A stretch of DNA of 64,000 bases, from sequence record NC_031103.1; one strand, written 5' to 3'. Within the stretch, counting starts at the first letter, position 1. Each line of letters starts with the position of its first letter. This DNA comes from Escherichia phage vB_EcoM-UFV13. The position numbers were made by a program, and so were the translations under genes. This document shows positions 2,100 through 48,173 of the stretch, one piece after another. The notes under the pieces are model-generated. The model was given only the letters and a program-made list of their open reading frames with translations, was not told the origin of the DNA and searched no databases.

Positions 2100-2150
2100 C
2101 ACTATATCCTTAATTCTTTAATTCTATATGCCCTAGGTTAAACATAGGGA

Positions 2151-2158
2151 TATAAATA
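2151..2158 (+). promoter_or_regulatory. Second TATAAATA motif upstream of gene 19
   Basis: Exact TATAAATA 15 nt before the ATG; the predicted start would fall in the SD (GAGG), so function is uncertain. Confidence 0.35.
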
Positions 2159-2172
2159 CTACAGAGGCTAAT

Positions 2173-2664: not shown

Positions 2665-2669
2665 AATGA

Positions 2670-2687
2670 ATGGGGAGAAATCCCCAT
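2670..2687 (+). terminator. Stem-loop after gene 19 (TGGGGA-GAAA-TCCCCA)
   Basis: 6-7 bp perfect stem with GAAA tetraloop 6 nt after the gene 19 stop. Confidence 0.5.
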
Positions 2688-2696
2688 CCTGCTTAA

Positions 2697-4321
<1,625 letters not shown>

Positions 4322-8048: not shown

Positions 8049-8063
8049 TCTTTGACGATTTAA

Positions 8064-8079
8064 GGGACCTTCGGGTCCC
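8064..8079 (+). terminator. Intrinsic terminator after gene 23 (GGGACC-TTCG-GGTCCC then T-run)
   Basis: Perfect 6-bp GC stem with UUCG tetraloop followed by TTTAGTTGTTTTT. Confidence 0.8.
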
Positions 8080-8096
8080 TTTAGTTGTTTTTATGG

Positions 8097-8104
8097 TATA
8101 AATA
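8097..8104 (+). promoter_or_regulatory. T4-type late promoter TATAAATA for gene 24
   Basis: Exact TATAAATA about 28 nt upstream of the gene 24 ATG. Confidence 0.7.
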
Positions 8105-8131
8105 AATCATATAAACCAAAAGGAAAGCGCA

Positions 8132-9444: not shown

Positions 9445-10449
9445 TTAACTTACCAATTCAATCCAAGCCGGACGAAGTACATCTTGTACCATTTTAACTA
9501 ATTCCTTTTTAATCAAAGAAGGATTATCCGCTTGAGTTAGAGTAATACCTTCACGAGAAGTTTCTTCCAAAATATCTTGAACAGTTAGTCCCATCACCTT
9601 TCCAAAATCTTTAGGACCAATTTCGCCAATTTTAGAAATAACGTTATTTACTCGGTTCAGTGTAACGTAACAAGCTAAAATTCCCACCAATTTGTTATCA
9701 GCTTCTGATAGTTCAACTTTAGCTTTAATAGGCTTATCAGACTTTTTCTTTTCACTAAATTTGGAATTCTTGCATTTAATAGCTACACGATTGCGATTAG
9801 GCAGCCAAGAAGGATAACAAGGTTTCAATACATATCCTTCAGCGGTAAATACTTCGCCTTTAGCTTCGGCATTCCAAACGCATTTATTTGCATCAACTAA
9901 TCCAGCATGGTCTACTGTAAAATTATAATCTTGGACAACAGAATCTAAATCATTTGGCAATTTAATAAGCTCTTCAAATTTACCGCGGCCTAAAAGTGGA
10001 GCCATTTTAAATTTAAATGTATTACAGAATGATTCCATCATATAATCGTCGACATAAGTCACATCACCACTTTCTGTAGTGACAATAATGTCAAATACAT
10101 AAAAATCTTTATCACCATAATCAACATTCTTCTGAATGCCAGGTCCAGCGAATTCGCCAAAGACTTGATAAGATACAACCGCTGAGGTTTCCATAATATC
10201 TTGTACTGCTTTAATGGAATCAGCGTAATTCTTTAAAATAATTTCATACCCAAAGAAATCTTCAGCAGGAAGAATCGGTCCAGTACGTTTAGCGCAAGTT
10301 ACTTTATCACGCTCAATAATCAATGAGAAATTTGTACCATGAATCTTTTCACGAGCTACCCACTCCCCACCAGTCAATCCCAAGCTGTAAAGTTTTTCAA
10401 TAAATTTAGAGTTGTAATGATTTTCAAGACTGCTATACTTTTTAAACAT
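9445..10449 (-). CDS. rnlB: RNA ligase 2 (Rnl2)
   Basis: 334 aa as in T4 Rnl2; nucleotidyltransferase motif I around [10 protein letters not shown] (KxHG); position after gene 24. Confidence 0.9.
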
Positions 10450-10458
10450 AATTAATCC

Positions 10459-10737
10459 TCAAAATGTAATTTCTAACCAATCACCATCACGCTGATCACT
10501 ATTGACTTTAAAGCTGAATCCTTCTTTTCTCAGCCAATCACCAATTTCTTCAGTAATCAATTTATCGCGAGCAGTACAATAATAACTAAAATATGTTTTA
10601 CCTTGTTCAGCTGCTTTATTAGCAAGTTCTGAAAAATCTTTAATAAAACACTCTAGCTTAAACTGTTTACTTTTTAATGCTTTTTCACGTAATTGATTAG
10701 CAAAAGATTCATTTTCATAAAGATCATACTGTTCCAT
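10459..10737 (-). CDS. Hypothetical protein (positional equivalent of T4 24.2)
   Basis: 92-aa ORF in series with rnlB. Confidence 0.55.
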   Translation of the reverse strand: MEQYDLYENESFANQLREKALKSKQFKLECFIKDFSELANKAAEQGKTYFSYYCTARDKLITEEIGDWLRKEGFSFKVNSDQRDGDWLEITF

Positions 10738-10939
10738 TTTTCACCTTTTTATTGATATGTCTTTTTCTATAGACAACTTTTTCTCGAGTTTCAAATTTAT
10801 TCTTAGCAGTCATAGCTCGAGCCCATAATACAGCCACTTCTTTTGCCTGTAAGTTCAATTCACGAGCAATTTCAATGAATGACTTTCCAGACTCATGAAG
10901 AGTAAACACCACAACCTCAGTTCTCATAATCAATCTCAT
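10724..10939 (-). CDS. Hypothetical small basic protein with possible helix-turn-helix (positional equivalent of T4 24.3)
   Basis: 71 aa, ATG start; segment SGKSFIEIARELNLQAKEVAVLW resembles an HTH. Confidence 0.5.
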   Translation of the reverse strand: MRLIMRTEVVVFTLHESGKSFIEIARELNLQAKEVAVLWARAMTAKNKFETREKVVYRKRHINKKVKNGTV

Positions 10940-11006
10940 GTTATCGAGTTAGTGCCATTATATACATCATTTTCTGATTGTGTTTTGTGTGCTTTCAAAA
11001 TGAAGA

Positions 11007-11024
11007 AAGGGGCCGAAGCCCCTT
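11007..11024 (-). terminator. Stem-loop downstream of hoc (GGGGC-CGAA-GCCCC)
   Basis: Perfect GC stem 5 nt after the hoc stop. Confidence 0.6.
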
Positions 11025-11028
11025 ATGA

Positions 11029-12159
11029 TTATGGATAGGTATAGATGATACCAGTTTCTAAAGCAGTTTTATGAATGATGTATCCATTACGTGATTCTTG
11101 AACATCAACTTCTGGATAGTCTTTCATCATCTTCTGAAGAGTGTAACGATGCAGGTAATATTTACTATCTGGATCGTCAGTTTTCCAATCTTTACCTTCT
11201 TCAGTCATTTTTTGGATTTCATCCATAACCCACCAACCGCACCAGATGTAAGCTGAAGTACGATGTGGAAGAGGATGAACATAAGGTAATTCACCTTCTG
11301 GTTCTGGAGCAACTTTATCAGTTACCTGAACTTGACCTTCTGCTGTAATAGTTTTACTATCATAATCAGTAGCAGTAACAGTTGCAGTAACTTCAATAGT
11401 TTGACTTCCAATAGATGAGGTATCAACGGTATATACATTAGTTGACCCTTCTACAGGAGAAGAATCTTTCTTCCATGAATATTCAATTTGCGCTTCTTCT
11501 GGAGCATCCGTAACATTAGCCGTAAATGTAGCCGAAGCATCTTGCTGAACGTTAATAGAAGGAGGAGTCAATGTAACCTGTGGATTCATTGTCTTCTTAT
11601 TAACAGTCAGTGATACTTCATTAGAAGTAACTTCCTTTGCATCATAATCTGCCGCGGTTACTTGAGCTACACACTTGATTTTTTTAACTCCGCTTGTAGT
11701 AGGAGTGTAATTGAATGTAGCAGAAGTTGCTTCGCCCACAGGAGAACCGTCAACGTGCCATTGATACGTAGCAGATGCACCTGATGGCTGCGAAGCTAAA
11801 GCAGCAGTAAATTCAACTGGGGTTCCGATTACTCCAGCGGCGGGGCTATCAGGAGTTACAGCCAATGTAGTCGTCTGTGTCTTATTTTGAACTGTGATAG
11901 TTGTAGTAGCTTCTGCTGTTTCAGGTTCAGATTCTGCAACTTGATTGGTTGCAACTACTTTAATAGTCTTTTGACCGGCAGGTCCTTTTAGTACATAACT
12001 AAAAGTTGCTGACGTTTCTTCCTGTGGAGCATCGTCTACAGTCCAAGCATATGTAATAGGTCCATCTCCAGTTTGACCACTGGGTGTAGCAGTAAACTGC
12101 TTAGTTTCATCAATAACCCCTGTCGGTGTTTTAGGAGTTATATCAACTGTAAAAGCCAT
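11029..12159 (-). CDS. hoc: Head outer capsid protein Hoc (Ig-like domains)
   Basis: 376 aa as in T4 Hoc; T/S/V-rich repeated beta-strand (Ig-like) segments; position. Confidence 0.88.
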   Translation of the reverse strand: MAFTVDITPKTPTGVIDETKQFTATPSGQTGDGPITYAWTVDDAPQEETSATFSYVLKGPAGQKTIKVVATNQVAESEPETAEATTTITVQNKTQTTTLAVTPDSPAAGVIGTPVEFTAALASQPSGASATYQWHVDGSPVGEATSATFNYTPTTSGVKKIKCVAQVTAADYDAKEVTSNEVSLTVNKKTMNPQVTLTPPSINVQQDASATFTANVTDAPEEAQIEYSWKKDSSPVEGSTNVYTVDTSSIGSQTIEVTATVTATDYDSKTITAEGQVQVTDKVAPEPEGELPYVHPLPHRTSAYIWCGWWVMDEIQKMTEEGKDWKTDDPDSKYYLHRYTLQKMMKDYPEVDVQESRNGYIIHKTALETGIIYTYP

Positions 12160-12168
12160 AAGTTATCC

Positions 12169-12849
12169 TTATTTTAATGTTACGAAAGAAGAATTGCGTG
12201 TTTCACGAATTAAAACTGATCCGTCACGGTTAATGTAATAAATTAAGCTAAATAAAGTTTGGTGTGCTGACGCATGCTCAAAACTTGTTGGGTGAGATTT
12301 CCAATCAGGAGTTTCAGCTATCCATTGATAAATCCACCAAGGAACAGTGCAGAATCCTGGATTTTTTCCAATCAGCTGAAGATTCGGACTAAAGTTTTCC
12401 GGAAGAGTAAATACAGACGGCTTTTCAGATTCAATAATCTCAGCTACAGCCTGTTCGAATTTTTCTTCAACAAAAGGAGTATCTTCAATCAAAACATCGG
12501 TATTTTCAGGAATTTTATCCGTTTCTACTACTTCAATTTTAATGTCAGATTTAACTGGAGAATCAATCAAAAGTGCTGCTTCTGGATTGACTTCTTCATC
12601 GTCATATTTTAATCCCTCTGCAGCATCAGCAGCATCAATTAAGTCTTTAATAGATAACCCATCAGTCTCTGGCATAGGTTCACTAGCGAGCTTCTGGAGG
12701 GCTTCTTCAATATCAACAACGATATTATCAAAAGATTTATTCTTTTTGACCTTTATACCAAACTGTTCAGCATATTCAGCTAATTTAGCTTTAGCTTCTT
12801 TATTATCATCAAGAGCCTTCAGCTCTGCAATATAATCTTTATCTATCAT
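12169..12849 (-). CDS. inh: Inh-like protein (inhibitor of prohead protease), acidic
   Basis: 226 aa, position next to hoc as in T4; GAGGA SD; identity by synteny and recalled length. Confidence 0.65.
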   Translation of the reverse strand: MIDKDYIAELKALDDNKEAKAKLAEYAEQFGIKVKKNKSFDNIVVDIEEALQKLASEPMPETDGLSIKDLIDAADAAEGLKYDDEEVNPEAALLIDSPVKSDIKIEVVETDKIPENTDVLIEDTPFVEEKFEQAVAEIIESEKPSVFTLPENFSPNLQLIGKNPGFCTVPWWIYQWIAETPDWKSHPTSFEHASAHQTLFSLIYYINRDGSVLIRETRNSSFVTLK

Positions 12850-12862
12850 AATATTTCCTCAG

Positions 12863-12870
12863 TATAAATA
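12863..12870 (+). promoter_or_regulatory. T4-type late promoter TATAAATA for uvsW
   Basis: Exact TATAAATA about 30 nt upstream of the uvsW ATG. Confidence 0.65.
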
Positions 12871-12899
12871 TAGATATATTTATTACATGGTATTTAGAC

Positions 12900-14411
12900 A
12901 TGACTGACATTAAAGTACATTTTTATGATTTTAGTCACGTGAGAATTGATTGTGAAGAAAGTACATTTCATGAACTCCGTGATTTCTTTAGCTTTGAAGC
13001 TGATGGGTATCGTTTTAATCCGAAGTACAGATATGGCCACTGGGATGGACGAATCCGTCTTTTAGATTATAATCGTCTTCTTCCATTCGGCTTAGTCGGG
13101 CAAATTAAAAAGTTCTGTGATAACTTTGGCTATAAAGCCTGGATTGACCCACAAATTAACGAAAAAGAAGAATTATCAAGAAAAGATTTTGATGAATGGC
13201 TTTCTAAATTAGAAATCTATTCAGGAAATAAAAGAATTGAACCACACTGGTATCAAAAAGATGCAGTGTTCGAAGGATTAGTTAATCGTCGTAGAATTCT
13301 TAATCTTCCAACATCCGCTGGTAAATCTTTAATTCAAGCTTTGCTTGCGCGATATTATTTGGAAAATTATGAAGGTAAAATTCTTATCATTGTTCCAACA
13401 ACTGCTCTGACAACTCAGATGGCTGATGACTTCGTTGACTATCGTTTATTCAGTCATGCAATGATAAAGAAAATTGGCGGCGGAGCATCAAAAGATGATA
13501 AATATAAAAATGATGCACCAGTCGTTGTTGGTACATGGCAAACTGTAGTTAAACAACCAAAAGAATGGTTCTCACAGTTTGGAATGATGATGAATGATGA
13601 ATGCCATCTTGCTACAGGAAAAAGTATTTCATCTATCATATCAGGTTTAAATAACTGTATGTTTAAATTTGGTCTATCAGGTTCATTACGTGATGGCAAA
13701 GCCAATATCATGCAGTATGTTGGAATGTTTGGTGAAATATTTAAGCCAGTAACGACTTCTAAATTAATGGAAGATGGGCAAGTAACTGAGCTAAAAATTA
13801 ATAGTATTTTTCTTCGCTATCCCGATGAGTTCACTACTAAATTAAAGGGGAAAACTTATCAAGAAGAAATAAAAATTATTACTGGGCTCAGTAAAAGAAA
13901 TAAATGGATCGCTAAATTAGCTATTAAGCTTGCGCAAAAAGATGAAAACGCTTTTGTCATGTTTAAACATGTATCACATGGTAAAGCTATTTTTGATTTA
14001 ATTAAAAATGAATACGATAAAGTTTATTACGTATCAGGGGAAGTTGATACCGAAACCCGCAATATAATGAAAACCTTAGCTGAAAACGGTAAAGGAATAA
14101 TTATAGTAGCTAGTTATGGTGTATTTTCTACTGGTATTTCAGTTAAAAATCTACATCACGTTGTTTTAGCGCACGGTGTTAAATCAAAAATCATTGTATT
14201 ACAAACAATCGGTCGTGTATTACGTAAGCACGGTTCTAAGACAATAGCAACAGTCTGGGACCTCATAGATGATTGTGGTGTTAAGCCAAAATCTGCTAAT
14301 ACGAAAAAGAAATATGTTCATTTGAACTATCTTTTAAAACACGGCATTGATCGTATTCAGCGCTACGCAGATGAAAAATTTAATTACGTAATGAAAACAG
14401 TTAATTTATAA
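12900..14411 (+). CDS. uvsW: UvsW DNA helicase (SF2, recombination/repair)
   Basis: 503 aa; Walker A LPTSAGKS; DECH box (MNDECH); helicase motif VI-like QTIGRVLRK. Confidence 0.92.
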   Translation: MTDIKVHFYDFSHVRIDCEESTFHELRDFFSFEADGYRFNPKYRYGHWDGRIRLLDYNRLLPFGLVGQIKKFCDNFGYKAWIDPQINEKEELSRKDFDEWLSKLEIYSGNKRIEPHWYQKDAVFEGLVNRRRILNLPTSAGKSLIQALLARYYLENYEGKILIIVPTTALTTQMADDFVDYRLFSHAMIKKIGGGASKDDKYKNDAPVVVGTWQTVVKQPKEWFSQFGMMMNDECHLATGKSISSIISGLNNCMFKFGLSGSLRDGKANIMQYVGMFGEIFKPVTTSKLMEDGQVTELKINSIFLRYPDEFTTKLKGKTYQEEIKIITGLSKRNKWIAKLAIKLAQKDENAFVMFKHVSHGKAIFDLIKNEYDKVYYVSGEVDTETRNIMKTLAENGKGIIIVASYGVFSTGISVKNLHHVVLAHGVKSKIIVLQTIGRVLRKHGSKTIATVWDLIDDCGVKPKSANTKKKYVHLNYLLKHGIDRIQRYADEKFNYVMKTVNL

Positions 14412-14424
14412 GGGCTTCGGCCCT
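14411..14424 (+). other. Stem-loop at the uvsW stop (AGGGC-TTCG-GCCCT)
   Basis: Perfect 5-bp stem with UUCG loop overlapping the TAA; followed by the uvsW.1 SD rather than a U-tract. Confidence 0.5.
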
Positions 14425-14436
14425 TTGGAGAAAAAG

Positions 14437-14667
14437 ATGTTACTAGAATTTAAACAATTTCTTTATGAAGCTTCTATTGATGAATTTATGGGTAAAATTG
14501 CCTCTTGTCAAACATTAGAAGGTTTAGAAGAACTTGAAGCTTATTATAAGAAAAGAGTTAAAGAAACTGAATTAAAAGATACTGATGACATCTCTGTGAG
14601 AGATGCTTTGGCAGGAAAAAGAGCTGAATTAGAAGATTCAGACGATGAAGTAGAAGAAAGCTTTTAA
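14437..14667 (+). CDS. uvsW.1: UvsW.1-like small acidic protein
   Basis: 76 aa from the ATG at 14437 (GGAG SD 6 nt upstream), matching T4 UvsW.1 length; the track start at 14425 is TTG. Confidence 0.7.
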   Translation: MLLEFKQFLYEASIDEFMGKIASCQTLEGLEELEAYYKKRVKETELKDTDDISVRDALAGKRAELEDSDDEVEESF

Positions 14668-14676
14668 ATTAAAAAA

Positions 14677-14699
14677 GGCCCAACCGAAAAGGAAGGGCC
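14677..14699 (-). terminator. Stem-loop between uvsW.1 and the minus-strand uvsY operon
   Basis: GGCCC...GGGCC inverted repeat; U-rich 3' side when read on the minus strand. Confidence 0.45.
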
Positions 14700-14722
14700 A
14701 AAACTATAGACTAAAGGTCACA

Positions 14723-14890
14723 CTATAGCAAAAGTTGTGTTTCATTTAATTGTTCTTCCGAACTTTCTGAAACTGGTAGTTCTTTAATGTAATTATAGCA
14801 AGGCCCAGGATGTACAGGACCTTTGTCTGTTTCAACAACCAATGCAGAATCGATTGGAGTTTTACAGACAACACAAATCTTATCTGACAT
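14723..14890 (-). CDS. Small 55-aa protein with CxxC(20)C spacing, absent from the ORF track (possible uvsY.-1 equivalent)
   Basis: ATG at 14890 with GAGGAG SD 6 nt upstream and a late-promoter motif 26 nt upstream; translation MSDKICVVCKTPIDSALVVETDKGPVHPGPCYNYIKELPVSESSEEQLNETQLLL. Confidence 0.45.
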   Translation of the reverse strand: MSDKICVVCKTPIDSALVVETDKGPVHPGPCYNYIKELPVSESSEEQLNETQLLL

Positions 14891-14915
14891 GATTGTCTCC
14901 TCTGAATTATATATC

Positions 14916-14923
14916 TATTTATA
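14916..14923 (-). promoter_or_regulatory. T4-type late promoter (TATAAATA on the minus strand)
   Basis: TATTTATA on the + strand overlapping the stop of the 74-aa ORF, upstream of the 55-aa ORF. Confidence 0.55.
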
Positions 14924-15143
14924 CAACTCTCATATGCATATCAATGCCCATATCTTTAGAATAAAAATATTCATCAAGATATCCGGCAAATTTTCCTTTA
15001 ATATAAAGGACATCTTCACCACATGGATGATCAGCCAGGATACGAATATCCTGACGCTTAAGATTATGCTTTTTCATTAAGAATTGAATTTCCGTTTCAA
15101 ATTCTTCTTCATAATTAAAAGCATCATCAATGTTATATCTCAT
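14919..15143 (-). CDS. Hypothetical protein (positional equivalent of T4 uvsY.-2)
   Basis: 74 aa, immediately downstream of uvsY. Confidence 0.55.
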   Translation of the reverse strand: MRYNIDDAFNYEEEFETEIQFLMKKHNLKRQDIRILADHPCGEDVLYIKGKFAGYLDEYFYSKDMGIDMHMRVV

Positions 15144-15556
15144 TATTTTCCAGCCTCAAATGCTCGCATGTCTTGAATATGCTTAATAGCAAATCCACGT
15201 GATTTGATAGCATCAAGAGCTCCGCTACAGAAATCTAATAAAATTCCCCAATATTGTAATGAAGTATCAACCTTTAAAACATCCTTATCAGCTGATAGAA
15301 CTGTCTTCATTTCTGATTTCTCGTAACGATCCATACTAAATTCATCACCATCTCCTCGTCCCGAGTAGTAGTCTAATTTAGCTTTAAGAGCAACTTTTTT
15401 CTGTGCATCAATTCTAAGCATTTCCTTTTTAATACTTGAATGCTTATTAAGCCATTTACTATATAACATCACATTATTAGCTGCTTCATACTGCAATTTA
15501 GTCGAATCTATAAACACATCTTTCTTCAATTCTTCTTGAAGATCTTCTAATCTCAT
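15143..15556 (-). CDS. uvsY: UvsY recombination mediator
   Basis: 137 aa as in T4 UvsY; position. Confidence 0.9.
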   Translation of the reverse strand: MRLEDLQEELKKDVFIDSTKLQYEAANNVMLYSKWLNKHSSIKKEMLRIDAQKKVALKAKLDYYSGRGDGDEFSMDRYEKSEMKTVLSADKDVLKVDTSLQYWGILLDFCSGALDAIKSRGFAIKHIQDMRAFEAGK

Positions 15557-15596
15557 ATTGTTCTCTATTCAATTGTTATTGGATGGACTTAGATTC

Positions 15597-15622
15597 ATTA
15601 TACCACGTTTATACGTGAAGCA
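15597..15622 (-). promoter_or_regulatory. MotA-dependent middle promoter for uvsY
   Basis: Minus strand reads TGCTTCA (MotA box) - 13 nt - TATAAT, about 40 nt upstream of the uvsY ATG. Confidence 0.55.
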
Positions 15623-16021
15623 TTATACTCTATTACTGGAAGCCAGTTGCAGTTTTATCTGCTCAATATCATCAGGATTATCGATGACCGAAAAGCGTAT
15701 TTCTACTATCAGAGTATAATCATCATAAACCGGTATCACATTAACTGATAATTTATCAATACGTGGCTCATAGTTTCTTACCGCGCTTTCGATGTTACGC
15801 TCAACTGTGTCAGCAGTAAGAGGAGTCATATTTTCAAAAAGCTGGTCTGATAAATCACATCCAAATTCAGGGTCAAACGGTCTTGAACCTTTTCTTGTTG
15901 TAATAATTCCCAAAAGACTGTTTTTAATTGACCTTAATCCAAGAGATCTAGAAACGTCTTTGTCCCAGTCCATTTTCATTTCTGGGTCAATGTCAGAATA
16001 AAGCTTATTAATATTTGCCAT
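15623..16021 (-). CDS. 25: Baseplate wedge protein gp25
   Basis: 132 aa as in T4 gp25; position. Confidence 0.9.
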   Translation of the reverse strand: MANINKLYSDIDPEMKMDWDKDVSRSLGLRSIKNSLLGIITTRKGSRPFDPEFGCDLSDQLFENMTPLTADTVERNIESAVRNYEPRIDKLSVNVIPVYDDYTLIVEIRFSVIDNPDDIEQIKLQLASSNRV

Positions 16022-16647
16022 TACAATAGCTCAAAGAATTCTTTGAGTCCTCTTATTACATGAGCGTGAGTTTTTCCACACTCTGGACACTTAATTGGAA
16101 CAGCCAAATAAACAGTAGGCTTTAAAAGCATATCTTTTATAGCTACAATATCTGACTCTGTGATGATAGAATATAAATCTTCCAGTTCTTTTTCATTTAA
16201 GTCTTCAACTGGAATGCTTTCCCCGTTAGCATGAATCGTTTCTATACATGATACTATCATGTGGGCTATATTTTTATCATCAAAAATTTTAGGGTAATGG
16301 AACTTAATTTTAATGTCACCCAGTGTATACCAGAGGTCTTCTGGTGCATCTATTTGTGTATGTAATAGATTTATATGGGTTGGTATTTCAGTTCCACAGG
16401 TGCACTTCCAGGAGTTTTCGTGATTAACTTCACCAAGAGAATGTGCCCATAAATGAATCAACAATAGTTCTGATTCTTGGCGGTTTAAATCTTTTGCATT
16501 TGTGCAGTCTTTGATTAGCTTTTTAACAATTACTTCTACGGAACCATTATTTTTGGCAGTAATAAGTTCTAGATATTCTTTAAGCGTGAATGCGCGACAA
16601 TTGATTATTTTAGAACCAACTCTCACGTCAAATTTGTATTCATACAT
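16021..16647 (-). CDS. 26: Baseplate hub protein gp26
   Basis: 208 aa as in T4 gp26; position. Confidence 0.85.
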
Positions 16648-16668
16648 ATTTAGCTCCTTTATTTATCA

Positions 16669-16676
16669 TATTTATA
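16669..16676 (-). promoter_or_regulatory. T4-type late promoter for genes 26-25 (TATAAATA on the minus strand)
   Basis: TATTTATA on the + strand, 22 nt upstream of the gene 26 ATG. Confidence 0.65.
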
Positions 16677-16680
16677 AATA
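16673..16680 (+). promoter_or_regulatory. T4-type late promoter TATAAATA for gene 51
   Basis: Exact TATAAATA 18 nt upstream of the gene 51 ATG; overlaps the minus-strand motif in the palindrome TATTTATAAATA. Confidence 0.6.
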
Positions 16681-16697
16681 GAATAAAAGGAGCATCT

Positions 16698-17447
16698 ATG
16701 GCAAACATTATTCGTTGTAAATTACCAGATGGTGTTCATCGTTTTAAACCATTTACGGTAGAAGATTATCGAGATTTTTTGTTAGTTCGAAACGATATAG
16801 AACATCGGTCACCACAAGAACAAAAAGAAGTAATTGCTGATTTAATTGCTGATTATTTTGGAGACTATCCAAAGACTTGGCAACCATTTATATTTTTGCA
16901 GGTATTTGTAGGGTCAATAGGTAAAACTAAAGTACCAGTCACATTTGTGTGTCCAAAATGTAAAAAAGAAAAGACGGTTCCATTTGAAATATATCAAAAA
17001 GAATTAAAGGAACCTGTTTTTGATGTAGCTAATGTTAAAATTAAATTAAAGTTTCCTTCTGAGTTTTATGAAAATAAAGCAAAGATGATTACTGAAAATA
17101 TTCATTCTGTTCAAGTAGATGAAATATGGTATGATTGGAAGGAAATTAGCGAGTCCAGTCAAATAGAACTAGTTGACGCCATCGAGATAGAAACATTAGA
17201 AAAAATTCTCGATGCAATGAATCCTATTAATTTAACATTGCACATGTCGTGTTGTAATAAGTATGTAAAAAAATACACTGATATAGTAGATGTGTTTAAG
17301 CTATTAGTTAACCCAGATGAAATATTTACTTTTTATCAAATTAATCACACACTCGTAAAAAGTAATTATAGCTTAAATTCAATAATGAAAATGATTCCTG
17401 CCGAGCGCGGATTCGTATTAAAACTGATTGAGAAGGATAAACAATAA
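16698..17447 (+). CDS. 51: Baseplate hub assembly catalyst gp51
   Basis: 249 aa as in T4 gp51; position. Confidence 0.85.
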
Positions 17448-18622
17448 TGAGTATGTTGCAACGCCCCGGATATCCAAATCTCAGCGTTAAATTATTTGAT
17501 AGCTACGACGCTTGGAGTAATAATAGATTTGTTGAATTAGCTGCTACTATTACCACATTAACTATGCGGGATTCTCTTTATGGCCGAAATGAAGGAATGC
17601 TGCAGTTTTATGATTCTAAAAATATCCACACAAAAATGGATGGGAATGAAATAATTCAGATTTCTGTAGCTAATGCAAATGATATTAATAATGTTAAAAC
17701 ACGAATTTATGGATGTAAGCATTTTTCCGTGTCAGTAGATTCAAAAGGTGATAACATCATTGCTATTGAATTGGGAACTATTCATTCTATAGAAAATCTT
17801 AAATTTGGTAGACCATTTTTCCCTGATGCAGGTGAATCTATAAAAGAAATGCTTGGCGTCATTTATCAGGATCGCACATTATTAACTCCAGCAATAAATG
17901 CCATAAATGCCTATGTTCCTGATATTCCATGGACTAGCACATTTGAAAACTATTTGTCATATGTAAGAGAAGTTGGTCTAGCTGTAGGAAGCGACAAATT
18001 TGTATTTGTGTGGCAAGACATCATGGGAGTTAACATGATGGACTATGATATGATGATAAATCAAGAACCATATCCAATGATTGTCGGTGAGCCATCTTTA
18101 ATAGGTCAATTCATCCAAGAATTAAAATACCCATTAGCATATGATTTCGTTTGGTTAACTAAATCGAATCCTCACAAACGTGACCCAATGAAAAATGCTA
18201 CTATCTATGCGCATTCATTTTTAGATTCTTCATTGCCAATGATTACTACGGGAAAGGGCGAAAACTCTATTGTAGTGTCAAGGTCAGGTGCTTATTCTGA
18301 AATGACTTATAGGAACGGATATGAAGAAGCTATTCGTCTTCAAACTATGGCACAATATGACGGATATGCTAAATGTTCTACTGTCGGCAATTTTAACTTG
18401 ACTCCTGGTGTTAAAATTATTTTTAATGATAGTAAAAACCAATTTAAAACAGAATTTTACGTTGATGAAGTTATCCATGAATTATCCAATAATAATTCAG
18501 TAACTCATCTATATATGTTCACTAATGCAACGAAACTGGAAACAATAGACCCAGTTAAGGTTAAAAATGAATTTAAATCTGATACTACCACTGAAGAAAG
18601 TAGTTCTTCCAATAAGCAATAA
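17447..18622 (+). CDS. 27: Baseplate hub protein gp27
   Basis: 391 aa as in T4 gp27; TAATG overlap with 51. Confidence 0.9.
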
Positions 18623-23287: not shown

Positions 23288-23317
23288 ACTATAACACAAC
23301 ATAAGGAACTTGTAAAC
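23288..23317 (-). promoter_or_regulatory. T4 early-type promoter (GTTTACA - 17 nt - TATAGT) inside a conserved leader element, copy 1
   Basis: Minus strand GTTTACA overlapping the alt-paralogue stop, 17-nt spacer, TGTTATAGT; about 90% identical to the element at 38261-38316. Confidence 0.55.
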
Positions 23318-25374
23318 TACATTTTGAACTTTTTAGACATTCCGTTGATGTTAACCAAAGAAGCTAAGATTTGAGAAACTTCGTTTTCCTCTTCTTTTGA
23401 TTCTTCTACAAGGAATTGATTAAATCCAGTCATTGGACGAACTTCACCAGTTTCCATCAGATGGTCGCCATCATATACTGATTCTTCTAATTGTTCAGAA
23501 GGAGGAACGATTGTACCTTCGATTAGATACTTGTTATAAGCAGTTTCTTTCATAAAGTAAGTACTTACTTTATTAATCTTCAGTAAAATTCCACGCGGTA
23601 GAATAACTTCAGCTTCTGATGGAAATCCTGATAAATGACCTGGAACGATAACTTTGATTCGCTCAGCTCCTTTAATTACCATACCCACGCTAGTTTCAGC
23701 ATCTTCATTAGCATATGTAGAATGACTACCCATATGCATTAAATCTTCGGCATCAACGGAACCTTCTCCTTCACCAGAAAATACTGCGCCGGAATCATCT
23801 AGAGCCATATAGTTTTTACCATGCTCACCGAAGATATTTGGTTTAAGCGATGTGGATACGAAGTTCTTGAAATAGAACATTTTATTTTCAATGTTATGAC
23901 GCAAAGTTTTAAAGGTAACTTCTTGTCCACGGTAAAGTGTAGTTCCTGGAGGAAGAACTGATCCTTTGGCAAAGGCAGAATCCAACGTCTCGATGTGCTT
24001 AATAGCTCGTTCCATGTATTCTTCACGGGTAGAATCTGGTTTACCCAAAAGGAACGAGTTCATTTCAACATATGAATCTGCACAATAATCTTCAATTACA
24101 TCAGATTCAGCTTGGGTTAGTCCTTTTGGAGTTACTTCGGTGCTTGCGTATTCATATGCCTGAGCAGCAGATTCATTAATCAATTTATAAATGCCATTCA
24201 TTACAAATTGAATAATAGCTGTCTTTTCATCTGGTGTAGCTTTAGAACCTTTAACTAAATCATTGATAATTTTCTTAATAACATCAAAGCTATTAGAAAT
24301 ATTAATGTCAGCAAGATCACTTAAAATTTTATCAGTTTTATAATCAAAGAATTCTTTATTCTTTAAATATTCTTGAGAACCTTGATATGTTATATCGCTC
24401 TGCAGCTTGATAGATGGATCGCGTAAACGTGCATGGGCCAATGCAATATGATTTCGGAAGCTTTCTAGTTCATAATCGTTAGATTTAAAACGAGAAGCAC
24501 TTCTCATACCACCGATAGCTCCTTTGCTGAAGTTTGAACCAATCTGAATAACGCCAGAGTTCATTGGTCCTTCTGCTTTATATACCGGAACCTTAGATTC
24601 AAACTCTTGATATTTCTTAGCAGCGAAGCTATCACCCTGAAGTGAAGCGTCAACAGTAGAATATTGAGCTTGTGCTGCTAATCGACGACTAATTTTAGTT
24701 TTCTGAATAACAGCTTGGTCAGTACGTTTATCATTTTCTAAAGCAATAGAAGCAGCAACAGCGACAGCTTTAGGAACAGCATTACCTGTTTTAACGTCTA
24801 CATAAACATCACCAACCTTTGATTCAACTTTTGTGAATAACTCAGTTGAAATAGGAGGTACACCTGGAATGTCTTCTAAATTGGCATTTTTACGGTAAAC
24901 CATAATATATGCATATTTCTTATCATAGTCCCAGATTTCCTTTAAGAGAACATATCGACCTGCTCCTTTAGTACGTACTAAACGGTCAGCAATAACTTGC
25001 ATTTGACGAGCAGCGCCATTTGTTTTACTTTTTAGTACGCGGAATAGGCATGCATCAATTTTATACTGCTTCATTGTTTGAAGAGCAGTATCAAAAACAG
25101 CATTAATGACACCAATTGGATTTCCACCCAAGTTTCTAAGCTTAACCAGCGATAATTTCTCGTTGACACCTATCATTACGATATGCATCATTTTATCGCC
25201 TGGCTTAACGTTTTTATTTGTATCACCGCCAGAGGTGTATGTACAAAATCTAAATCCAGGAAGCACACTTTCTTCACCGGCTTGAATAGCAAAAATTTGA
25301 GGTATTTTATGCTTAGGATTTAAGTTAACAACCGGCGCCGAAGCGCCGTCAAATAATTCTGTAATAAGTTCCAT
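23317..25374 (-). CDS. Alt-family ADP-ribosyltransferase paralogue (head-packaged Alt-like protein)
   Basis: 685 aa; N-terminal about 230 aa and C-terminal ART region align with the adjacent Alt; central region diverged. Confidence 0.85.
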   Translation of the reverse strand: MELITELFDGASAPVVNLNPKHKIPQIFAIQAGEESVLPGFRFCTYTSGGDTNKNVKPGDKMMHIVMIGVNEKLSLVKLRNLGGNPIGVINAVFDTALQTMKQYKIDACLFRVLKSKTNGAARQMQVIADRLVRTKGAGRYVLLKEIWDYDKKYAYIMVYRKNANLEDIPGVPPISTELFTKVESKVGDVYVDVKTGNAVPKAVAVAASIALENDKRTDQAVIQKTKISRRLAAQAQYSTVDASLQGDSFAAKKYQEFESKVPVYKAEGPMNSGVIQIGSNFSKGAIGGMRSASRFKSNDYELESFRNHIALAHARLRDPSIKLQSDITYQGSQEYLKNKEFFDYKTDKILSDLADINISNSFDVIKKIINDLVKGSKATPDEKTAIIQFVMNGIYKLINESAAQAYEYASTEVTPKGLTQAESDVIEDYCADSYVEMNSFLLGKPDSTREEYMERAIKHIETLDSAFAKGSVLPPGTTLYRGQEVTFKTLRHNIENKMFYFKNFVSTSLKPNIFGEHGKNYMALDDSGAVFSGEGEGSVDAEDLMHMGSHSTYANEDAETSVGMVIKGAERIKVIVPGHLSGFPSEAEVILPRGILLKINKVSTYFMKETAYNKYLIEGTIVPPSEQLEESVYDGDHLMETGEVRPMTGFNQFLVEESKEEENEVSQILASLVNINGMSKKFKM

Positions 25375-25377
25375 GAT

Positions 25378-27474
25378 TTATCCTTGAACGAACTTGTAAG
25401 GCATGTTTGTAATATCTATGCAAGACGCAATAATTCCAAGAGATGATTCTACTTTCTGTTTAACATTTGATGAAACAAATGATGCAAAGTCAACTCTGTC
25501 TTCTACTTCAATATCACCTGTCATTGCAACTACTTCACCGGTTTCCATTAAATGGTCTCCGTCATAGATTACCGATTCGGTGAGCTCTTCCGTAGTCATA
25601 ACTTCAGCTTGAATGAGTTTTGTATTATTAGATGTTGTTCCGTCATTATTAGAAGCATCAGTTATTTTATTAACTTTGACCATCAATCCGCGCGGTAGAA
25701 TAACTTCAGCTTCTGTTGCTATTCCGAGACTTCCTGGATATACAACATTAACTTTATGAGCTCCATCAATTGCCCATCCTATTTGAACTTTAACGTATTC
25801 AGGATTTTCTTTATACGCTCTTATTTCGTTTGGATTAATAGTTATTCCTTCTTCATTTTTATCAACTGTTAATTCATTGCGAGCTTCTGGTTCTAAAAGA
25901 CCAATACCAGCATGTGTAATTCCAAAACGTCCAAAAATGATAGGAGTTAAAGAAGTAGATACAAAATTTCTGAAATAGAACACTTTATTTTTAACTAGTG
26001 CTTCGTATATAGGAGCAGTCATACTTTGAGCACGATAAACTGTAATGCCTTCCGGTATGCGGTCACCATTTTCAAAAGCTGAATCTAAATTATTTATAGC
26101 AGATTCAATTTCTTTTTCACTCATTACATCATATCGTTCTGGATTGTAACGACCTAAAAGAAGATTATTAATGTCTGTATATCCTGAACCACAATATTCT
26201 CTAATACCTCGCTTTTGTGATGGAGTATATTTAGAACCATCACGGGCGATAGTAATATCAATCATTGGACCAGCGCCAATTCCGGAAAAGCTATAAATCA
26301 TTCGTTTGAGGAATTTAGTTTTTGCCGCATTCCAGGCATTTTTAGTTATTTCTCCCCAGACTTCATCTGACTGCCCTTTACGAGTTTTATTATGTTTATC
26401 AAGCCAATTATCTTTGTATTCTTCAAAGAATTTATTAACAGCTGCTGCGTATTTCTCTAAACATTTTATTGAAGTAGTTGGTTCATTTTTGATTGCGTTA
26501 AAAATTACATCTTTAATTTTTTCTGAAACTTCATCAACCTCACTTTTTGAAAAGAATTTATAGTCATAGTGAAGTTCATTCGCAGTTCCTTCGGCAATAA
26601 TTTTTGCTGCCTTAGTTTTAGAAGCTAATGAATTAATTCCAAGCTTCATTTCTTCTGCTTCGGGAATTAAAGGAGCGGTAGCAGGTTTATTGAAATTAGC
26701 TGCGGTAGATTCATACTTCTGGAATAATTCACTTTCAAATCTAGAAGATTCCAATGATTGACTTTGCGCAATTGCTCTACGGGAAATTTTAACTTTAACG
26801 ATTACAGCTTGGTCAGAACGCTTATCATTTTCTTGCGCAATAGATGCTGCAATTGCCTCATTTTTAGTTACTTGGGCTCCAGTATCTTTATTGATATAAA
26901 CATCACCGACCTTCGATTCAACTTTAGTAAAGAGCTCGGTACTAATTTCCGGAACTCCTGGAATGTCTTCTAGCGATACATTTTTGCGATGTATAAGAAT
27001 ATATGCATACTTTTTATCGTAATCCCAGAGTTCCTTAAGAAGGACGTATCTGCCACCTGAACGACTACGGATAAGTCTATCAGCAATAACTTGAATTTGT
27101 CGAGCTTGACCAGCAGTTTTAGACTTAAGAATACGAAGCATACAAGCATCAATTTTATATTGACGCATAGTTTGCATTGCAACAGTAAAAACTGAATTGA
27201 TATAATTAATTGGGCTTGGACCAAGACCTTTTAATTTAGCAATTGAACCTTTAGCAGTTAATGTAAAAGGAACAATATGCATCATTTTATCGCCCATCTT
27301 TAAATCGCGATTAGTATCACCTCCAGATGTATAGGTACATAAACGAAAGCCTGGTTGTTCAATTGCATCATCAACATGAACTGAAAAAATTTGTGGTATT
27401 TTCTTCTTTGGATTTAAGTTTGTAATCGGAAGAGTAGTATCTTCGTCAAATAATTCTGTAATAAGTTCCATCAT
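25378..27474 (-). CDS. alt: Alt ADP-ribosyltransferase
   Basis: 698 aa; N-terminus MELITELFDEDTTLPITNL and C-terminus IASCIDITNMPYKFVQG recalled as T4 Alt; ART motifs (YRxQ-like, STSL, EAEVILPRG). Confidence 0.9.
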   Translation of the reverse strand: MMELITELFDEDTTLPITNLNPKKKIPQIFSVHVDDAIEQPGFRLCTYTSGGDTNRDLKMGDKMMHIVPFTLTAKGSIAKLKGLGPSPINYINSVFTVAMQTMRQYKIDACMLRILKSKTAGQARQIQVIADRLIRSRSGGRYVLLKELWDYDKKYAYILIHRKNVSLEDIPGVPEISTELFTKVESKVGDVYINKDTGAQVTKNEAIAASIAQENDKRSDQAVIVKVKISRRAIAQSQSLESSRFESELFQKYESTAANFNKPATAPLIPEAEEMKLGINSLASKTKAAKIIAEGTANELHYDYKFFSKSEVDEVSEKIKDVIFNAIKNEPTTSIKCLEKYAAAVNKFFEEYKDNWLDKHNKTRKGQSDEVWGEITKNAWNAAKTKFLKRMIYSFSGIGAGPMIDITIARDGSKYTPSQKRGIREYCGSGYTDINNLLLGRYNPERYDVMSEKEIESAINNLDSAFENGDRIPEGITVYRAQSMTAPIYEALVKNKVFYFRNFVSTSLTPIIFGRFGITHAGIGLLEPEARNELTVDKNEEGITINPNEIRAYKENPEYVKVQIGWAIDGAHKVNVVYPGSLGIATEAEVILPRGLMVKVNKITDASNNDGTTSNNTKLIQAEVMTTEELTESVIYDGDHLMETGEVVAMTGDIEVEDRVDFASFVSSNVKQKVESSLGIIASCIDITNMPYKFVQG

Positions 27475-35472: not shown

Positions 35473-36883
<1,411 letters not shown>

Positions 36884-36887
<4 letters not shown>

Positions 36888-38318: not shown

Positions 38319-39906
<1,588 letters not shown>

Positions 39907-39913
39907 AATAAAA

Positions 39914-39927
39914 TGGGCCTTGCGGCC
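39914..39927 (-). terminator. Terminator after nrdB (GGGCC-GCAA-GGCCC then U-run, minus strand)
   Basis: Perfect GC hairpin 7 nt after the nrdB stop, followed by ATTTTATTATG. Confidence 0.65.
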
Positions 39928-39933
39928 CACTCC

Positions 39934-41103
39934 TTAAAAATATTTTTTAAAACTCATCATAACTTTATCATCAACATCATTATCAATCTGCGCAACAAGG
40001 TAAGATGACAGTTCTACTTCTTGCGGTGCAGATTGAACATTATCAGAATTAAGATATTCACGAATCCAAGGATACGGATGTTTAACCGGAGCATCAGTAA
40101 TTGGGCATGGAAGACCGCACTGTTTCATACGAGATACAGTTAAGTAATCAATAAAGCTCCACATGCTATTTGTATTTAATCCAGGAACATCGCCATCTTT
40201 AAATAAATGAACTGCCCAGTCTTTTTCTTGACGGTTAACTTCCATGAAAATATCAACTGCTTCTTGTTCACATTCTTGGGCAATTTTAACCCATTCATCA
40301 CCATCAGTGCCAAGTTGAAGTTGACGAATAATATATTGGGTGCCTTTAAGGTGAAGCTGCTCATCACGTGCAATGAACTTCATAATCTTGGCATTACCTT
40401 CCATAATTTCCATGTTCTTATGGAAGTTAAAGGTACATGCGAAAGATACATAAAAACGAATAGCTTCCAATGCGTTGATTACGTGCAGGCAGAGGTAAAG
40501 AGATTTCATTAGTGCTCGTTTAGTACATTCAACAACTTTGCCTAACTCTTCTTTACGAAATCCTTCTGATAAAATTCCTTCATAATCTTCAACCGCATTC
40601 TGATATTCACGAGTCTTAACTAGAACATCATCGTAATAGCGACCAATGGACTCGGCACGTTTCATAATAGCTTTATCTAATACAATCTCGTCAAATACTT
40701 TTGACGGATCAGTATAAAGATTTCGCATAATATGAGTATATGAACGGCTGTGAATAGTTTCGCTAAAAGTCCATGTAGCAACCCATGTATCAAGACTTGG
40801 GTCTGAAATTAACGACATAAGTACAGCAGACGGCGCACGACCCTGAATGCTATCCAAAAGTGATTGATACTTCAGGTTATTAGTAAAAATATCTTGCTGA
40901 TATTGAGGAAGCTTGTTAAATTGTGCAGCATCCATCATCAAGTTTACTTCTTCAGGACGCCAGAAAAATGATAATTGCTTTTCGGTTAAATCTTCAAAAA
41001 CTTTATGACGTTGAATATCGTAACGCGCAATACCGAGACCTGAACCGAAGAACATAGGTTCTTTTAAAACATCAACTGGATTTGTATTAAAAACTGTGCT
41101 CAT
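39934..41103 (-). CDS. nrdB: Ribonucleotide reductase small subunit (uninterrupted, no intron)
   Basis: 389 aa continuous ORF; di-iron ligand motifs; T4 nrdB carries a group I intron that is absent here. Confidence 0.95.
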   Translation of the reverse strand: MSTVFNTNPVDVLKEPMFFGSGLGIARYDIQRHKVFEDLTEKQLSFFWRPEEVNLMMDAAQFNKLPQYQQDIFTNNLKYQSLLDSIQGRAPSAVLMSLISDPSLDTWVATWTFSETIHSRSYTHIMRNLYTDPSKVFDEIVLDKAIMKRAESIGRYYDDVLVKTREYQNAVEDYEGILSEGFRKEELGKVVECTKRALMKSLYLCLHVINALEAIRFYVSFACTFNFHKNMEIMEGNAKIMKFIARDEQLHLKGTQYIIRQLQLGTDGDEWVKIAQECEQEAVDIFMEVNRQEKDWAVHLFKDGDVPGLNTNSMWSFIDYLTVSRMKQCGLPCPITDAPVKHPYPWIREYLNSDNVQSAPQEVELSSYLVAQIDNDVDDKVMMSFKKYF

Positions 41104-41154
41104 AAATTTTCCGCTTAGTTAATAGATAGTGACTCGTCCGTGAGTCAAATTATA

Positions 41155-43976: not shown

Positions 43977-44837
43977 TTATACCGCCATTTTTCCTTTCAA
44001 GACGCCGTGGGACTGATAATCTTTGAGAACGAAATCTTTAGGCCTGAGTTTAAGAATGTATTCCAATTGTTCTTTAGTAGAAAGATATCGGAATTTATAA
44101 GGCAATCCGCCTATTATCAGTTCACAAAGCTCTTTAGGTTCACGACACAAAATTTCTTTACATTGTTCTACGTGATTCATATAGATATGAGTATTACCGC
44201 CAGAAAATATCAAATCTCCAGGAATAAGATTACACATCTTAGCTACAATATGAACTAACGCAGCATATGATGCAATGTTGAATGGCAAGCCCAAGAACAC
44301 GTCAACACTTCTTTGATACCACTGCAAATCTAAATAGCCATTACGCACATTAAACTGATAGAACATATGACAAGGTGGTAATGCCATATATTTAAGTTCA
44401 GCTGGATTCCACGCAGAAACAATTTGACGCCTATCACTTGGTAGTTTTTTAATACGATCAATAACTTTTACAATTTGGTCTACACCGCCAAAATCACGCC
44501 ATTGTTTTCCATAAATTGGACCAAGTTCACCGCTATGGTATCCTAAATCTTTTGCTTGATTTTCGTAATTTTCATCCCAGACTGTTTTGCCTTGAATTAA
44601 TGAATCATGCTGAATTAATCGTAAATCATTGACATTTGTGCTTCCTGATAAAAACCAAAGCAGCTCAGCAATGCAAGCTTTCCAGGCGAGCTTCTTGGTT
44701 GTTACCGCAGGAAAACCTTTAGTTAAATCCCAACGTAATTTAGTACCGAACAAAGCAATTGTTCCTGTGCCTGTTCGATCATCGGTTTCATAGCCATTTT
44801 CAAAAATATCTTTAATTAAATCTTGGTATTGTTTCAT
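43977..44837 (-). CDS. td: Thymidylate synthase (uninterrupted, no intron)
   Basis: 286 aa continuous; N-terminus MKQYQDLIKDIFENGYETDDRTGTGT and active-site PPCH recalled as T4 Td; the T4 td intron/I-TevI is absent. Confidence 0.96.
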   Translation of the reverse strand: MKQYQDLIKDIFENGYETDDRTGTGTIALFGTKLRWDLTKGFPAVTTKKLAWKACIAELLWFLSGSTNVNDLRLIQHDSLIQGKTVWDENYENQAKDLGYHSGELGPIYGKQWRDFGGVDQIVKVIDRIKKLPSDRRQIVSAWNPAELKYMALPPCHMFYQFNVRNGYLDLQWYQRSVDVFLGLPFNIASYAALVHIVAKMCNLIPGDLIFSGGNTHIYMNHVEQCKEILCREPKELCELIIGGLPYKFRYLSTKEQLEYILKLRPKDFVLKDYQSHGVLKGKMAV

Positions 44838-44853
44838 TTAGTACCTTATATAA

Positions 44854-44882: not shown

Positions 44883-45230
44883 TCAATACGGTTTAGCATC
44901 AAATTTTCTCTCAATTTCAGGTGTGAAATATAATTCTTTACCACGTTTGGAAAAGCGACCAATAATATGATAATTATTCTCATCAAACGTGATATTACCA
45001 ATATCCATAGCTTTCAACCAAATATCGATATTTCTATCCAGCTTTATGTCAAAATTCCAATACAGAGAACTATTACCGAAAATACTGCAAGCGGATTCAG
45101 TGAAACAACTGCTATAAATCTTGTCTTTAGGAACTACTAATTGATAGACACCTTTAATAAACTGAGGACCCTGCCACTTTGGCTGTTTCTCATCTTTTTC
45201 TAATAGAATAGGGTAATAATTAAAATTCAT
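44883..45230 (-). CDS. Hypothetical 115-aa protein in the frd-td junction (not present at this junction in T4)
   Basis: ATG-initiated ORF filling a roughly 410-bp gap between frd and td; no recognisable motif. Confidence 0.6.
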   Translation of the reverse strand: MNFNYYPILLEKDEKQPKWQGPQFIKGVYQLVVPKDKIYSSCFTESACSIFGNSSLYWNFDIKLDRNIDIWLKAMDIGNITFDENNYHIIGRFSKRGKELYFTPEIERKFDAKPY

Positions 45231-45249
45231 ATTTCCGCCACGCGTTATT

Positions 45250-46076
<827 letters not shown>

Positions 46077-47165: not shown

Positions 47166-48074
47166 TTAAAGGTCATTCAAAAGGTCATCCAGGTCCGTGT
47201 CATCAGCACTAGATGAACTGCCAGAGCTTGAGCTCATAAAATCATCTTCAGTTTTTGTTTTGAAGTCATCAACATTGAATGCATCCAAATCATCAGCAAC
47301 TTTATCAGCTTTCTTAGCAGCAATTGCAGCGGCACCACCCATCACAGCAGTTCCCATGACTTGACTGAACTTAGTGCTCAGTTCTTCAAATGATTTGAAT
47401 TTATCTTTAGAAGTCATTTCAGAAAGGTCAACCATTTGTTCGAACAGTTCTTTCTGGAAAGATTCATCATCAATGTTTGGAATCGCAGATTGATTCAGGA
47501 ATTTAGATTCATCGTAGTTACTAAATCCAGAAACTTGTTTAACTTTCAGTACAAAGTTAGCACCTTCCCACGGACAAGTTACATCAACCGGAGTTTCACC
47601 CATTTCAACATCAACTGCAATCATTGCGTTGATTTTATCCCAGATTTTCTTACCGAAACGGTATTTAAATACTTTACCTTCATTTTCTGGAGCAGCCGGG
47701 TCTTTTACAACAAGAATGTTAGCCCAGTAAGAAGTTTTACGTTTAACAAGACTGTACTCTTTATTGTCAGTGTTGTACAAATCATTTTTACTGATGTACT
47801 GACATACTGGGCAAGAATCGTAATCACCGTGGGTAGATGAGCAATTTTCGATATACCATTTACCGTTTTTCTTGAAACCGTGATTTACAAGAATTGCGAA
47901 TGGTGCTTGTTCATCATTTTTAGACGGAAGAAAACGAATTACTGCTTGACCGTTACCCGCATTGTCGAGTTTCAGTTTCCACTCGCCTTTATCTTCAGAA
48001 GAAAAACCACCTTTATTTCCAGCCAGTTTAGCCATTTGTGCAGCGAGTTCAGCAGTAGATTTACGTTTAAACAT
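47166..48074 (-). CDS. 32: Single-stranded DNA-binding protein gp32
   Basis: 302 aa; N-terminus [52 protein letters not shown] recalled as T4 gp32; Zn site C..H..C..C; acidic C-terminus. Confidence 0.96.
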
Positions 48075-48145
48075 TTTTATTTCCTTTTTAATTTAATTAA
48101 CAGTTGGTGCTATGACGATGTATGACCTCATAGCTGGTCAGTGAG
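48075..48145 (-). promoter_or_regulatory. Gene 32 translational operator: 5'-leader pseudoknot plus A/U-rich unstructured region (autoregulation site)
   Basis: Leader RNA ...UGACC-A-GCUAUGA-GGUCA-UACAUCG-UCAUAGC... gives interleaved pairings UGACC/GGUCA and GCUAUGA/UCAUAGC, followed by a U/A-rich stretch to the AUG. Confidence 0.7.
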
Positions 48146-48157
48146 ATAATTATAATC

Positions 48158-48165
48158 TATTTATA
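48158..48165 (-). promoter_or_regulatory. T4-type late promoter for gene 32 (TATAAATA on the minus strand)
   Basis: TATTTATA on the + strand about 85 nt upstream of the gene 32 ATG, upstream of the operator leader. Confidence 0.55.
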
Positions 48166-48173
48166 ATAAGCAA

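Follow-up and report, generated by a model that had tools for sequence, protein, structure and literature searches.

The patchy distribution of introns and of seg and mob endonuclease genes among the T-even phages is textbook knowledge, and the present case matters mainly for annotation. T4 is an outlier with 15 endonuclease genes, while most of its relatives have few (PMC2988022). In T4, introns with I-TevI and I-TevIII are found in td and nrdB, segE lies between inh and uvsW, and segG lies between genes 32 and 59 (T4 annotation; Table 1 of PMC2988022); this arrangement was stated correctly in the preliminary description of the DNA studied here, from which all of these elements are absent. 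In crosses of T4 with T2, transfer occurs by gene conversion induced by a double-strand break or a nick (PMC2988022, PMC2790892, PMC2330249), and this mechanism applies to crosses with the present phage only if it operates in them.

The targets of several T4 enzymes have been described in related phages. Gene 32 of T2 is a documented SegG target and excluded marker (PMC2330249), and SegE cuts the inh (hoc.1)-uvsW intergenic region in RB30 and RB52 (PMC2330249). MobE nicks nrdB of T2 at nt 122-126 (Wilson & Edgell 2009; PMC2790892), and the target proposed for it is bipartite, made up of the polymorphic nt 114-131 and of the block that codes for FFWRPEE (PMC2790892). The I-TevIII of T4 is a defective deletion remnant (PMC1865063). 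Set against the T4 homing set of I-TevI, I-TevIII, MobE, SegD, SegE and SegG, the window analysed here (the whole 64-kb stretch of DNA) holds unoccupied alleles of the same six loci; it differs from that set in that no element is present and that the td target is recoded, and the I-TevIII of T4 is itself inactive.

Intron and endonuclease sites in the window

The window is a Tequatrovirus (T4-like) segment that extends from gene 18 nearly to motA, and in blastn it is collinear with positions 98460-163000 of T4 (NC_000866). The closest records in the phage collection are approximately 95-96% identical to it. The segments that have no counterpart in T4 are a second Alt paralogue, the T2-type tip of gp37, gp38 (Pfam GP38 match, 1e-68; T2 adhesin family) and three small ORFs of PHROG families. 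The two Alt-type ADP-ribosyltransferase paralogues at 23317..27474 are arranged in tandem and are both of full length (685 and 698 aa), each with a Pfam ADPrib_exo_Tox match; their T4 counterpart is one alt gene with the remnants alt.-1 and alt.-2.

The thymidylate synthase gene td (43977..44837, minus strand) is a continuous ORF of 286 aa, in which the CAT at 44835-44837 on the plus strand is the ATG start codon on the minus strand. The td locus is 861 nt long, versus 1878 nt for the T4 pre-mRNA, and T4 td without its annotated intron has the same length as the td of the window and is 91.3% identical to it. The intron junction of T4 maps to 44289/44288 in the alignment to NC_000866, as an exact, excision-like absence. 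In the same manner, nrdB (39934..41103, minus strand) is a continuous ORF of 389 aa from which the 598-nt intron of T4 is precisely missing, with the junction at 40437/40436. The continuity of the two genes that was reported earlier therefore stands, both being single ORFs that lack exactly the T4 introns.

When the whole window is compared with T4 by blastn, six blocks specific to T4 prove to be precisely absent, namely segD, segE, the nrdB intron with I-TevIII, nrdB.1 with mobE, the td intron with I-TevI, and segG; the identity of these blocks was taken from the T4 annotation and from Table 1 of PMC2988022 (Edgell et al. 2010). Four of them leave empty intergenic sites, to which no strand applies. 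Between genes 23 and 24 (segD in T4; 8049..8131) there are 60 bp in the window versus 789 bp in T4, and between inh and uvsW (segE; 12850..12899) 635 bp of T4 correspond to a 19-bp alignment gap. The nrdA-nrdB interval (mobE and nrdB.1; 41104..41154) has 55 bp versus 700 bp in T4, and at the 59-32 interval (segG; 48075..48173) 623 bp of T4 face a 35-bp gap. The earlier statement that the hoc-uvsW interval and the neighborhood of gene 32 are devoid of free-standing GIY-YIG or HNH ORFs is borne out by the blastn gaps, by tblastn and by Pfam, and it extends to the segD and mobE sites, which had not been listed.

The window thus has the common endonuclease-poor Tequatrovirus layout of T2 and RB32, with intronless alleles of td and nrdB and four unoccupied intergenic sites. 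This state is ordinary for relatives of T4, and already known. In the phage collection, where approximately 490 records carry most of the region, the 5' end of the td intron is found in 252 records and that of the nrdB intron in 127, and approximately half of the sequenced relatives lack the former intron and three quarters the latter.

Homing-endonuclease genes overlooked elsewhere in the window, which had been named as a condition that would overturn the preliminary description, were sought by tblastn and Pfam, and only DenA was found. Indeed, tblastn of T4 SegD, SegE, SegG, MobE, NrdB.1, I-TevI and I-TevIII against the whole window gave nothing better than E = 0.3. The sole GIY-YIG gene is denA (endonuclease II; 39496..39930, minus strand; Pfam GIY-YIG, E = 5e-6), the product of which is 99.3% identical to T4 DenA and is a housekeeping nuclease, not a homing endonuclease. 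Pfam and other profile searches of the ORFs that are absent from T4 revealed no GIY-YIG, HNH or other nuclease domain.

An Rfam scan of the window, which included the group I intron family RF00028, returned no RNA family. Given that the same scan misses the ORF-containing introns of T4 td and nrdB, while it does find that of N2 td, which has no ORF (72.6 bits), this null result counts for less as proof that introns are absent. The absence of introns rests instead on ORF continuity and on the alignment, because the scan sees only ORF-less introns. The T4 introns (T4 locus 9500..17500) are missed at the gathering threshold, presumably because the ORF insertions split the model, and this is a caveat for automated intron screens of phage genomes.

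The blindness of Rfam to ORF-containing introns, together with three small T4-absent ORFs that have no assigned function (44883..45230, 45831..46076 and 36567..36887), leaves some room for introns or endonuclease genes that went unrecognised, for instance at a different site or as members of a new nuclease family. Against this, the whole window is collinear with genes of T4 or T2, every large ORF is continuous, tblastn and Pfam place a nuclease domain in DenA only, and T2 and RB32 also carry the three small ORFs, which belong to conserved PHROG families. Such hidden elements are therefore considered very improbable, and the layout is taken to be the intronless, endonuclease-poor one described above.

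The largest of these small ORFs (115 aa; 44883..45230, minus strand) sits in the frd-td interval; T4 lacks it, and T2, T6 and RB32 all have it. It has no Pfam, NCBIfam or PDB match, and a PHROG family of unknown function is its only assignment. It is bracketed by a 9-bp direct repeat, TAAATGAAA, at 45248..45256 and 44832..44840, and it looks like a cassette that was gained or lost via recombination at this repeat. The stop codon of frd lies in one copy of the repeat and the start codon of td in the other, while T4 has a single copy, in which the TGA of frd overlaps the ATG of td; the same repeat was remarked on by the annotators of RB32. The insert creates a heterology with T4 approximately 0.5 kb upstream of the I-TevI cut position. 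The other two ORFs, of 106 aa (36567..36887; PHROG 2364) and 81 aa (45831..46076; PHROG 3183), are likewise absent from T4, and the same positions hold an ORF in T2 and RB32.

The backbone had been described as T2/T6-like, and this label holds in part. T2 (AP018813) resembles the window in its intronless td (861 nt) and nrdB, in the absence of mobE and segG, in the two optional ORFs that flank frd (115 aa on the td side, and 81 aa), and in the 5' region of gene 32 and the MobE target, which are identical or nearly so; a single collinear HSP of 20.7 kb without indels joins the two from 35629 to 56355 of the window. T2 departs from the window in its overall identity of 94%, in the I-TevI site of td, in the variable segment of nrdB, in the tip of gp37 and in the C-terminal half of gp38. 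RB32 (NC_008515) shares the gene order from gene 59 to denA, the absence of introns and endonuclease genes, and the same td target allele, but differs in the td flanks on both sides of nt 514-576. T6 (AP018814) has the T2-type optional ORFs around frd, no segG and an intronless nrdB; unlike the window, it carries a td intron with an I-TevI that is 100% identical to that of T4, and a full-length MobE of 213 aa between nrdA and nrdB. The T2 part of the label is therefore supported by the gene layout and by gp38, and the T6 part is contradicted by the td intron with I-TevI and by MobE; in nucleotide identity the window is about equally distant from T2 (94.2%) and T4 (93.2%).

In T6 MobE (6585..7226 of the extracted AP018814 locus), the N-terminal part matches T4 MobE (65%) and the C-terminal 83 aa match T4 NrdB.1 (99%), so that mobE and nrdB.1 of T4 look, from their sequences, like two pieces of one ancestral gene.

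The I-TevI target in td

That a site is empty does not by itself make it susceptible. The position equivalent to the 38-bp I-TevI homing site (-27..+11, as defined in PMC2988022) lies at 44278..44315 on the minus strand, where 13 of the 38 bases differ from T4, 7 of them among the 15 bases of the spacer and 6 among the 20 of the primary binding region. With a slash for the insertion point, the site reads CAACGCTCAGTAGATGTTTTCTTGGGT/CTACCGTTTAATATT in T4, CAACGATCAGTAGATGTTTTTCTTGGT/CTTCCATTTAATATT in T2 and CAAAGAAGTGTTGACGTGTTCTTGGGC/TTGCCATTCAACATT in the window. All 13 differences from T4 are synonymous, and the protein sequence YQRSVDVFLGLPFNIAS is unchanged. The CNNNG cleavage motif, which has to lie 23/25 nt upstream of the insertion site, is retained as CAAAG (44311..44315; CDS nt 523-527). 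Its C-27 and G-23 are unchanged because coding fixes them: C-27 opens a Gln codon, and G-23 is the middle base of an Arg codon.

The differences form a compact patch of the RB32 type (44277..44312, minus strand; CDS nt 526-561, or -24..+12), in which there are 15 differences from T2 within 36 nt, including the switches of an Arg codon from CGN to AGA and of a Ser codon from TCA to AGT. Outside the patch, td of the window and of T2 differ at no position in nt 562-690 and at 15 positions in nt 1-525. A 54-mer that spans the site is found with 100% identity in 26 records (approximately 21 distinct phages), among them RB32, RB33, HY01 and W143. The td genes of RB32 and of the window are identical over nt 514-576, which include the whole I-TevI target, while there are 22 differences in nt 1-513 and the 3' end after nt 690 is very divergent. 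The fact that this stretch is shared exactly and the flanks are not means that the patch sits in different td backgrounds. In the phage collection there is no intronless phage with an I-TevI site identical to that of T4, and all 23 exact matches to the exon 1 side end at the intron junction.

The 3' end of td (43977..44150; CDS nt approximately 690-861) is a second mosaic block, with dense differences from T2, T4 and especially RB32, and with amino-acid changes at residues 231-280.

A functional readout is available for this allele. Kleinstiver et al. (2014) used motifs with 15-bp spacers from natural phage td genes, 53-87% identical to T4 (PMC4065259), and as Tev-mTALEN targets these natural substrates supported normal or better activity, with the exception of RB32 td, for which activity was reduced (PMC4065259). 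The spacer of the window, with 8 of 15 bases (53%) identical to T4, matches that RB32 substrate. The assay was performed in yeast with the nuclease-linker module of I-TevI alone, fused to a TALE (PMC4065259), and for the whole enzyme in vivo it suggests that cleavage of the td site of the window is likely to be reduced, not abolished. Nonetheless, full-length I-TevI is notably tolerant of substitutions (PMC2988022), and A/T-rich triplets such as AAA are preferred in its cleavage motif (PMC4065259). Given this tolerance and the CNNNG at the right distance, cutting may still be enough for homing. In sequence, the td target is not an intact I-TevI site, but the known RB32 allele with a published functional readout.

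Targets in nrdB and gene 32 and the predicted outcome of a cross with T4

The proposed MobE target lies at 40948..40990 on the minus strand (CDS nt 114-156), and the positions nicked in T2, nt 122-126, correspond to 40978..40982. It reads GAA AAG CAA TTA TCA TTT TTC TGG CGT CCT GAA GAA. In all phages without mobE, codon 42 of nrdB is AAG (PMC2790892); this codon is AAG (Lys) in the window as well, and the FFWRPEE-coding sequence TTTTTCTGGCGTCCTGAAGAA is identical to T2. The only differences from T2 across the target are two silent ones, at nt 129 and 132. By the features published for MobE sensitivity (PMC2790892), the nrdB of the window is, as judged from its sequence, of the sensitive type.

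If T4 excludes nrdB markers, the agent would be MobE, acting in trans (PMC2790892). Its nicks would lead to conversion of the nrdA-nrdB junction, and the nrdB intron could be carried along in trans. Given that the I-TevIII of T4 is defective, the intron would be transferred in a T4 cross only through conversion initiated by MobE. The target flank of this intron is identical to T4 over -30..-6 and +1..+23 and differs only at -5 and -2 (the latter shared with T2), and the positions cut by RB3 I-TevIII (-14/-16) are unchanged. The carry-in of the intron may be limited by a hypervariable nrdB stretch that separates the intron site from the position nicked by MobE. This indel-containing segment (CDS nt approximately 495-600; window approximately 40500..40610) differs among T4, T2 and the window, with approximately 50% identity versus 90-99% in the rest of the gene.

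Gene 32 (47166..48074, minus strand) is of the T2 type in its 5' part. The 59-32 intergenic sequence and the first approximately 90 nt of the gene are identical to T2, a single difference is found in the first approximately 180 nt, and the gene remains T2-type through approximately nt 300; the 5' region also carries the 3-nt insertion that separates T2 from T4. By analogy to T2, exclusion driven by SegG would be expected at gene 32.

The preliminary description had treated the unoccupied sites as natural targets, which amounts to saying that all of them, td included, are intact, and that T4 would exclude td, nrdB and gene 32 to a comparable extent through I-TevI, I-TevIII and SegG. The sites are indeed unoccupied, CNNNG is kept at -27..-23 of td, I-TevI tolerates many substitutions (PMC2988022), and the nrdB and gene 32 targets are T2-like. 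The td target differs from T4 at more than a third of its bases, however, and RB32 td, which has the identical site, is the sole natural td substrate with reduced activity. Moreover, the T4 I-TevIII is defective (PMC1865063) and therefore unable to drive exclusion, which removes it as the agent of exclusion at nrdB, and on the side of exon 1 homology with T4 is restricted by the 405-bp insert that separates frd from td. That all sites are comparably intact consequently appears unlikely: the notion of intact targets is retained as plausible for the MobE block of nrdB and for the T2-like 5' region of gene 32, and is partly undermined for td, where 13 of the 38 bases are changed from T4 to the RB32 allele. 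The explanation that we regard as probable is that the window has the T2/RB32 layout, with plausibly sensitive targets in nrdB and gene 32 and with a td target that is recoded as in RB32 and likely to be less cleavable. In a cross with T4, strong exclusion would then be expected around nrdA-nrdB and gene 32, with td intron homing possibly weak; marker exclusion is plausible for both nrdB and gene 32, and for td it would be weaker or is uncertain.

Origin of the td patch

Short-patch gene conversion, and not a gradual accumulation of point mutations, most likely brought in the td block, because its codon choices, including the AGA and AGT switches, resemble those of td in other T4-like genera. 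Similar choices are indeed seen there, with 45/51 and 44/51 identical positions in two examples. An exact donor outside Tequatrovirus was not found, the best of 80 IMG/VR td loci being 44-45/51 identical. The thyA gene of the host was judged an unlikely donor, since AGA and AGT codons do not fit it.

Among six alleles that were not chosen for the patch, diversity in the site region of td is 0.10 versus a mean of 0.05, with the amino acids invariant, and the eight most diverse 39-nt windows of td nt 1-690 all lie in or beside this region (nt approximately 490-579). Over the whole of td, the site ranks 53 of 275, with the signal swamped by the hypervariable 3' end. The I-TevI site region is thus a diversity peak within nt 1-690 only and for six alleles, which is no more than suggestive.

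A further reading is that selection has favored the patch as an anti-homing allele, in which precisely the I-TevI target is recoded by silent changes and which spreads between otherwise different td backgrounds by short-patch conversion and protects intronless phages from I-TevI. More generally, the target would then be an arms-race hotspot of synonymous diversity in Tequatrovirus td. We put this forward tentatively and hold it to be rather doubtful. The patch may also have nothing to do with resistance and be a neutral footprint, either of mosaic exchange or of the minimal co-conversion tract of an intron from a divergent donor that was later lost precisely. Several observations agree with a neutral origin: in phages N2 and WL-3 the same exon 1 flank is followed by a td intron that has no ORF, the stretch -23..-1 is necessarily overwritten whenever the intron homes, the patch starts where cleavage occurs, as expected of a minimal co-conversion tract, and other dense mosaic clusters occur in td, at the 3' end, so that patchy mosaicism alone could place one here. 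The exon 2 flank of N2, however, is T2-type and not of the window type, and a functional effect has been measured on RB32 td. In addition, the td allele of the window is not simply an intron-deleted copy, because the C at -1 cannot form the G-U pair of the 5' splice site. A neutral footprint is on the whole possible rather than probable. The import of the block by short-patch conversion remains the preferred account of how the recoded target arose.

The silent recoding of the I-TevI target, which the window shares with RB32 and approximately 20 further phages, can be viewed as a natural case of target-site escape under coding constraint, and the recoded td allele would be a cheap system for asking if alleles of this type are under selection. 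As the td allele is known from RB32, the findings are of a familiar kind, and some novelty would arise only if the patch is a selected, transferable anti-homing allele.

The td genes of phage N2 (ON645936; extracted locus 1985..4088) and of WL-3 are each interrupted by a group I intron of approximately 250 nt that has no ORF. The N2 intron (RF00028, 72.6 bits) is homologous to the core of the T4 td intron and is flanked on the exon 1 side by sequence of the window/RB32 type. N2 also has a free-standing GIY-YIG gene, 46% identical to I-TevI, which is located on the opposite strand, approximately 0.3 kb downstream of td, an arrangement that is reminiscent of "collaborative homing".
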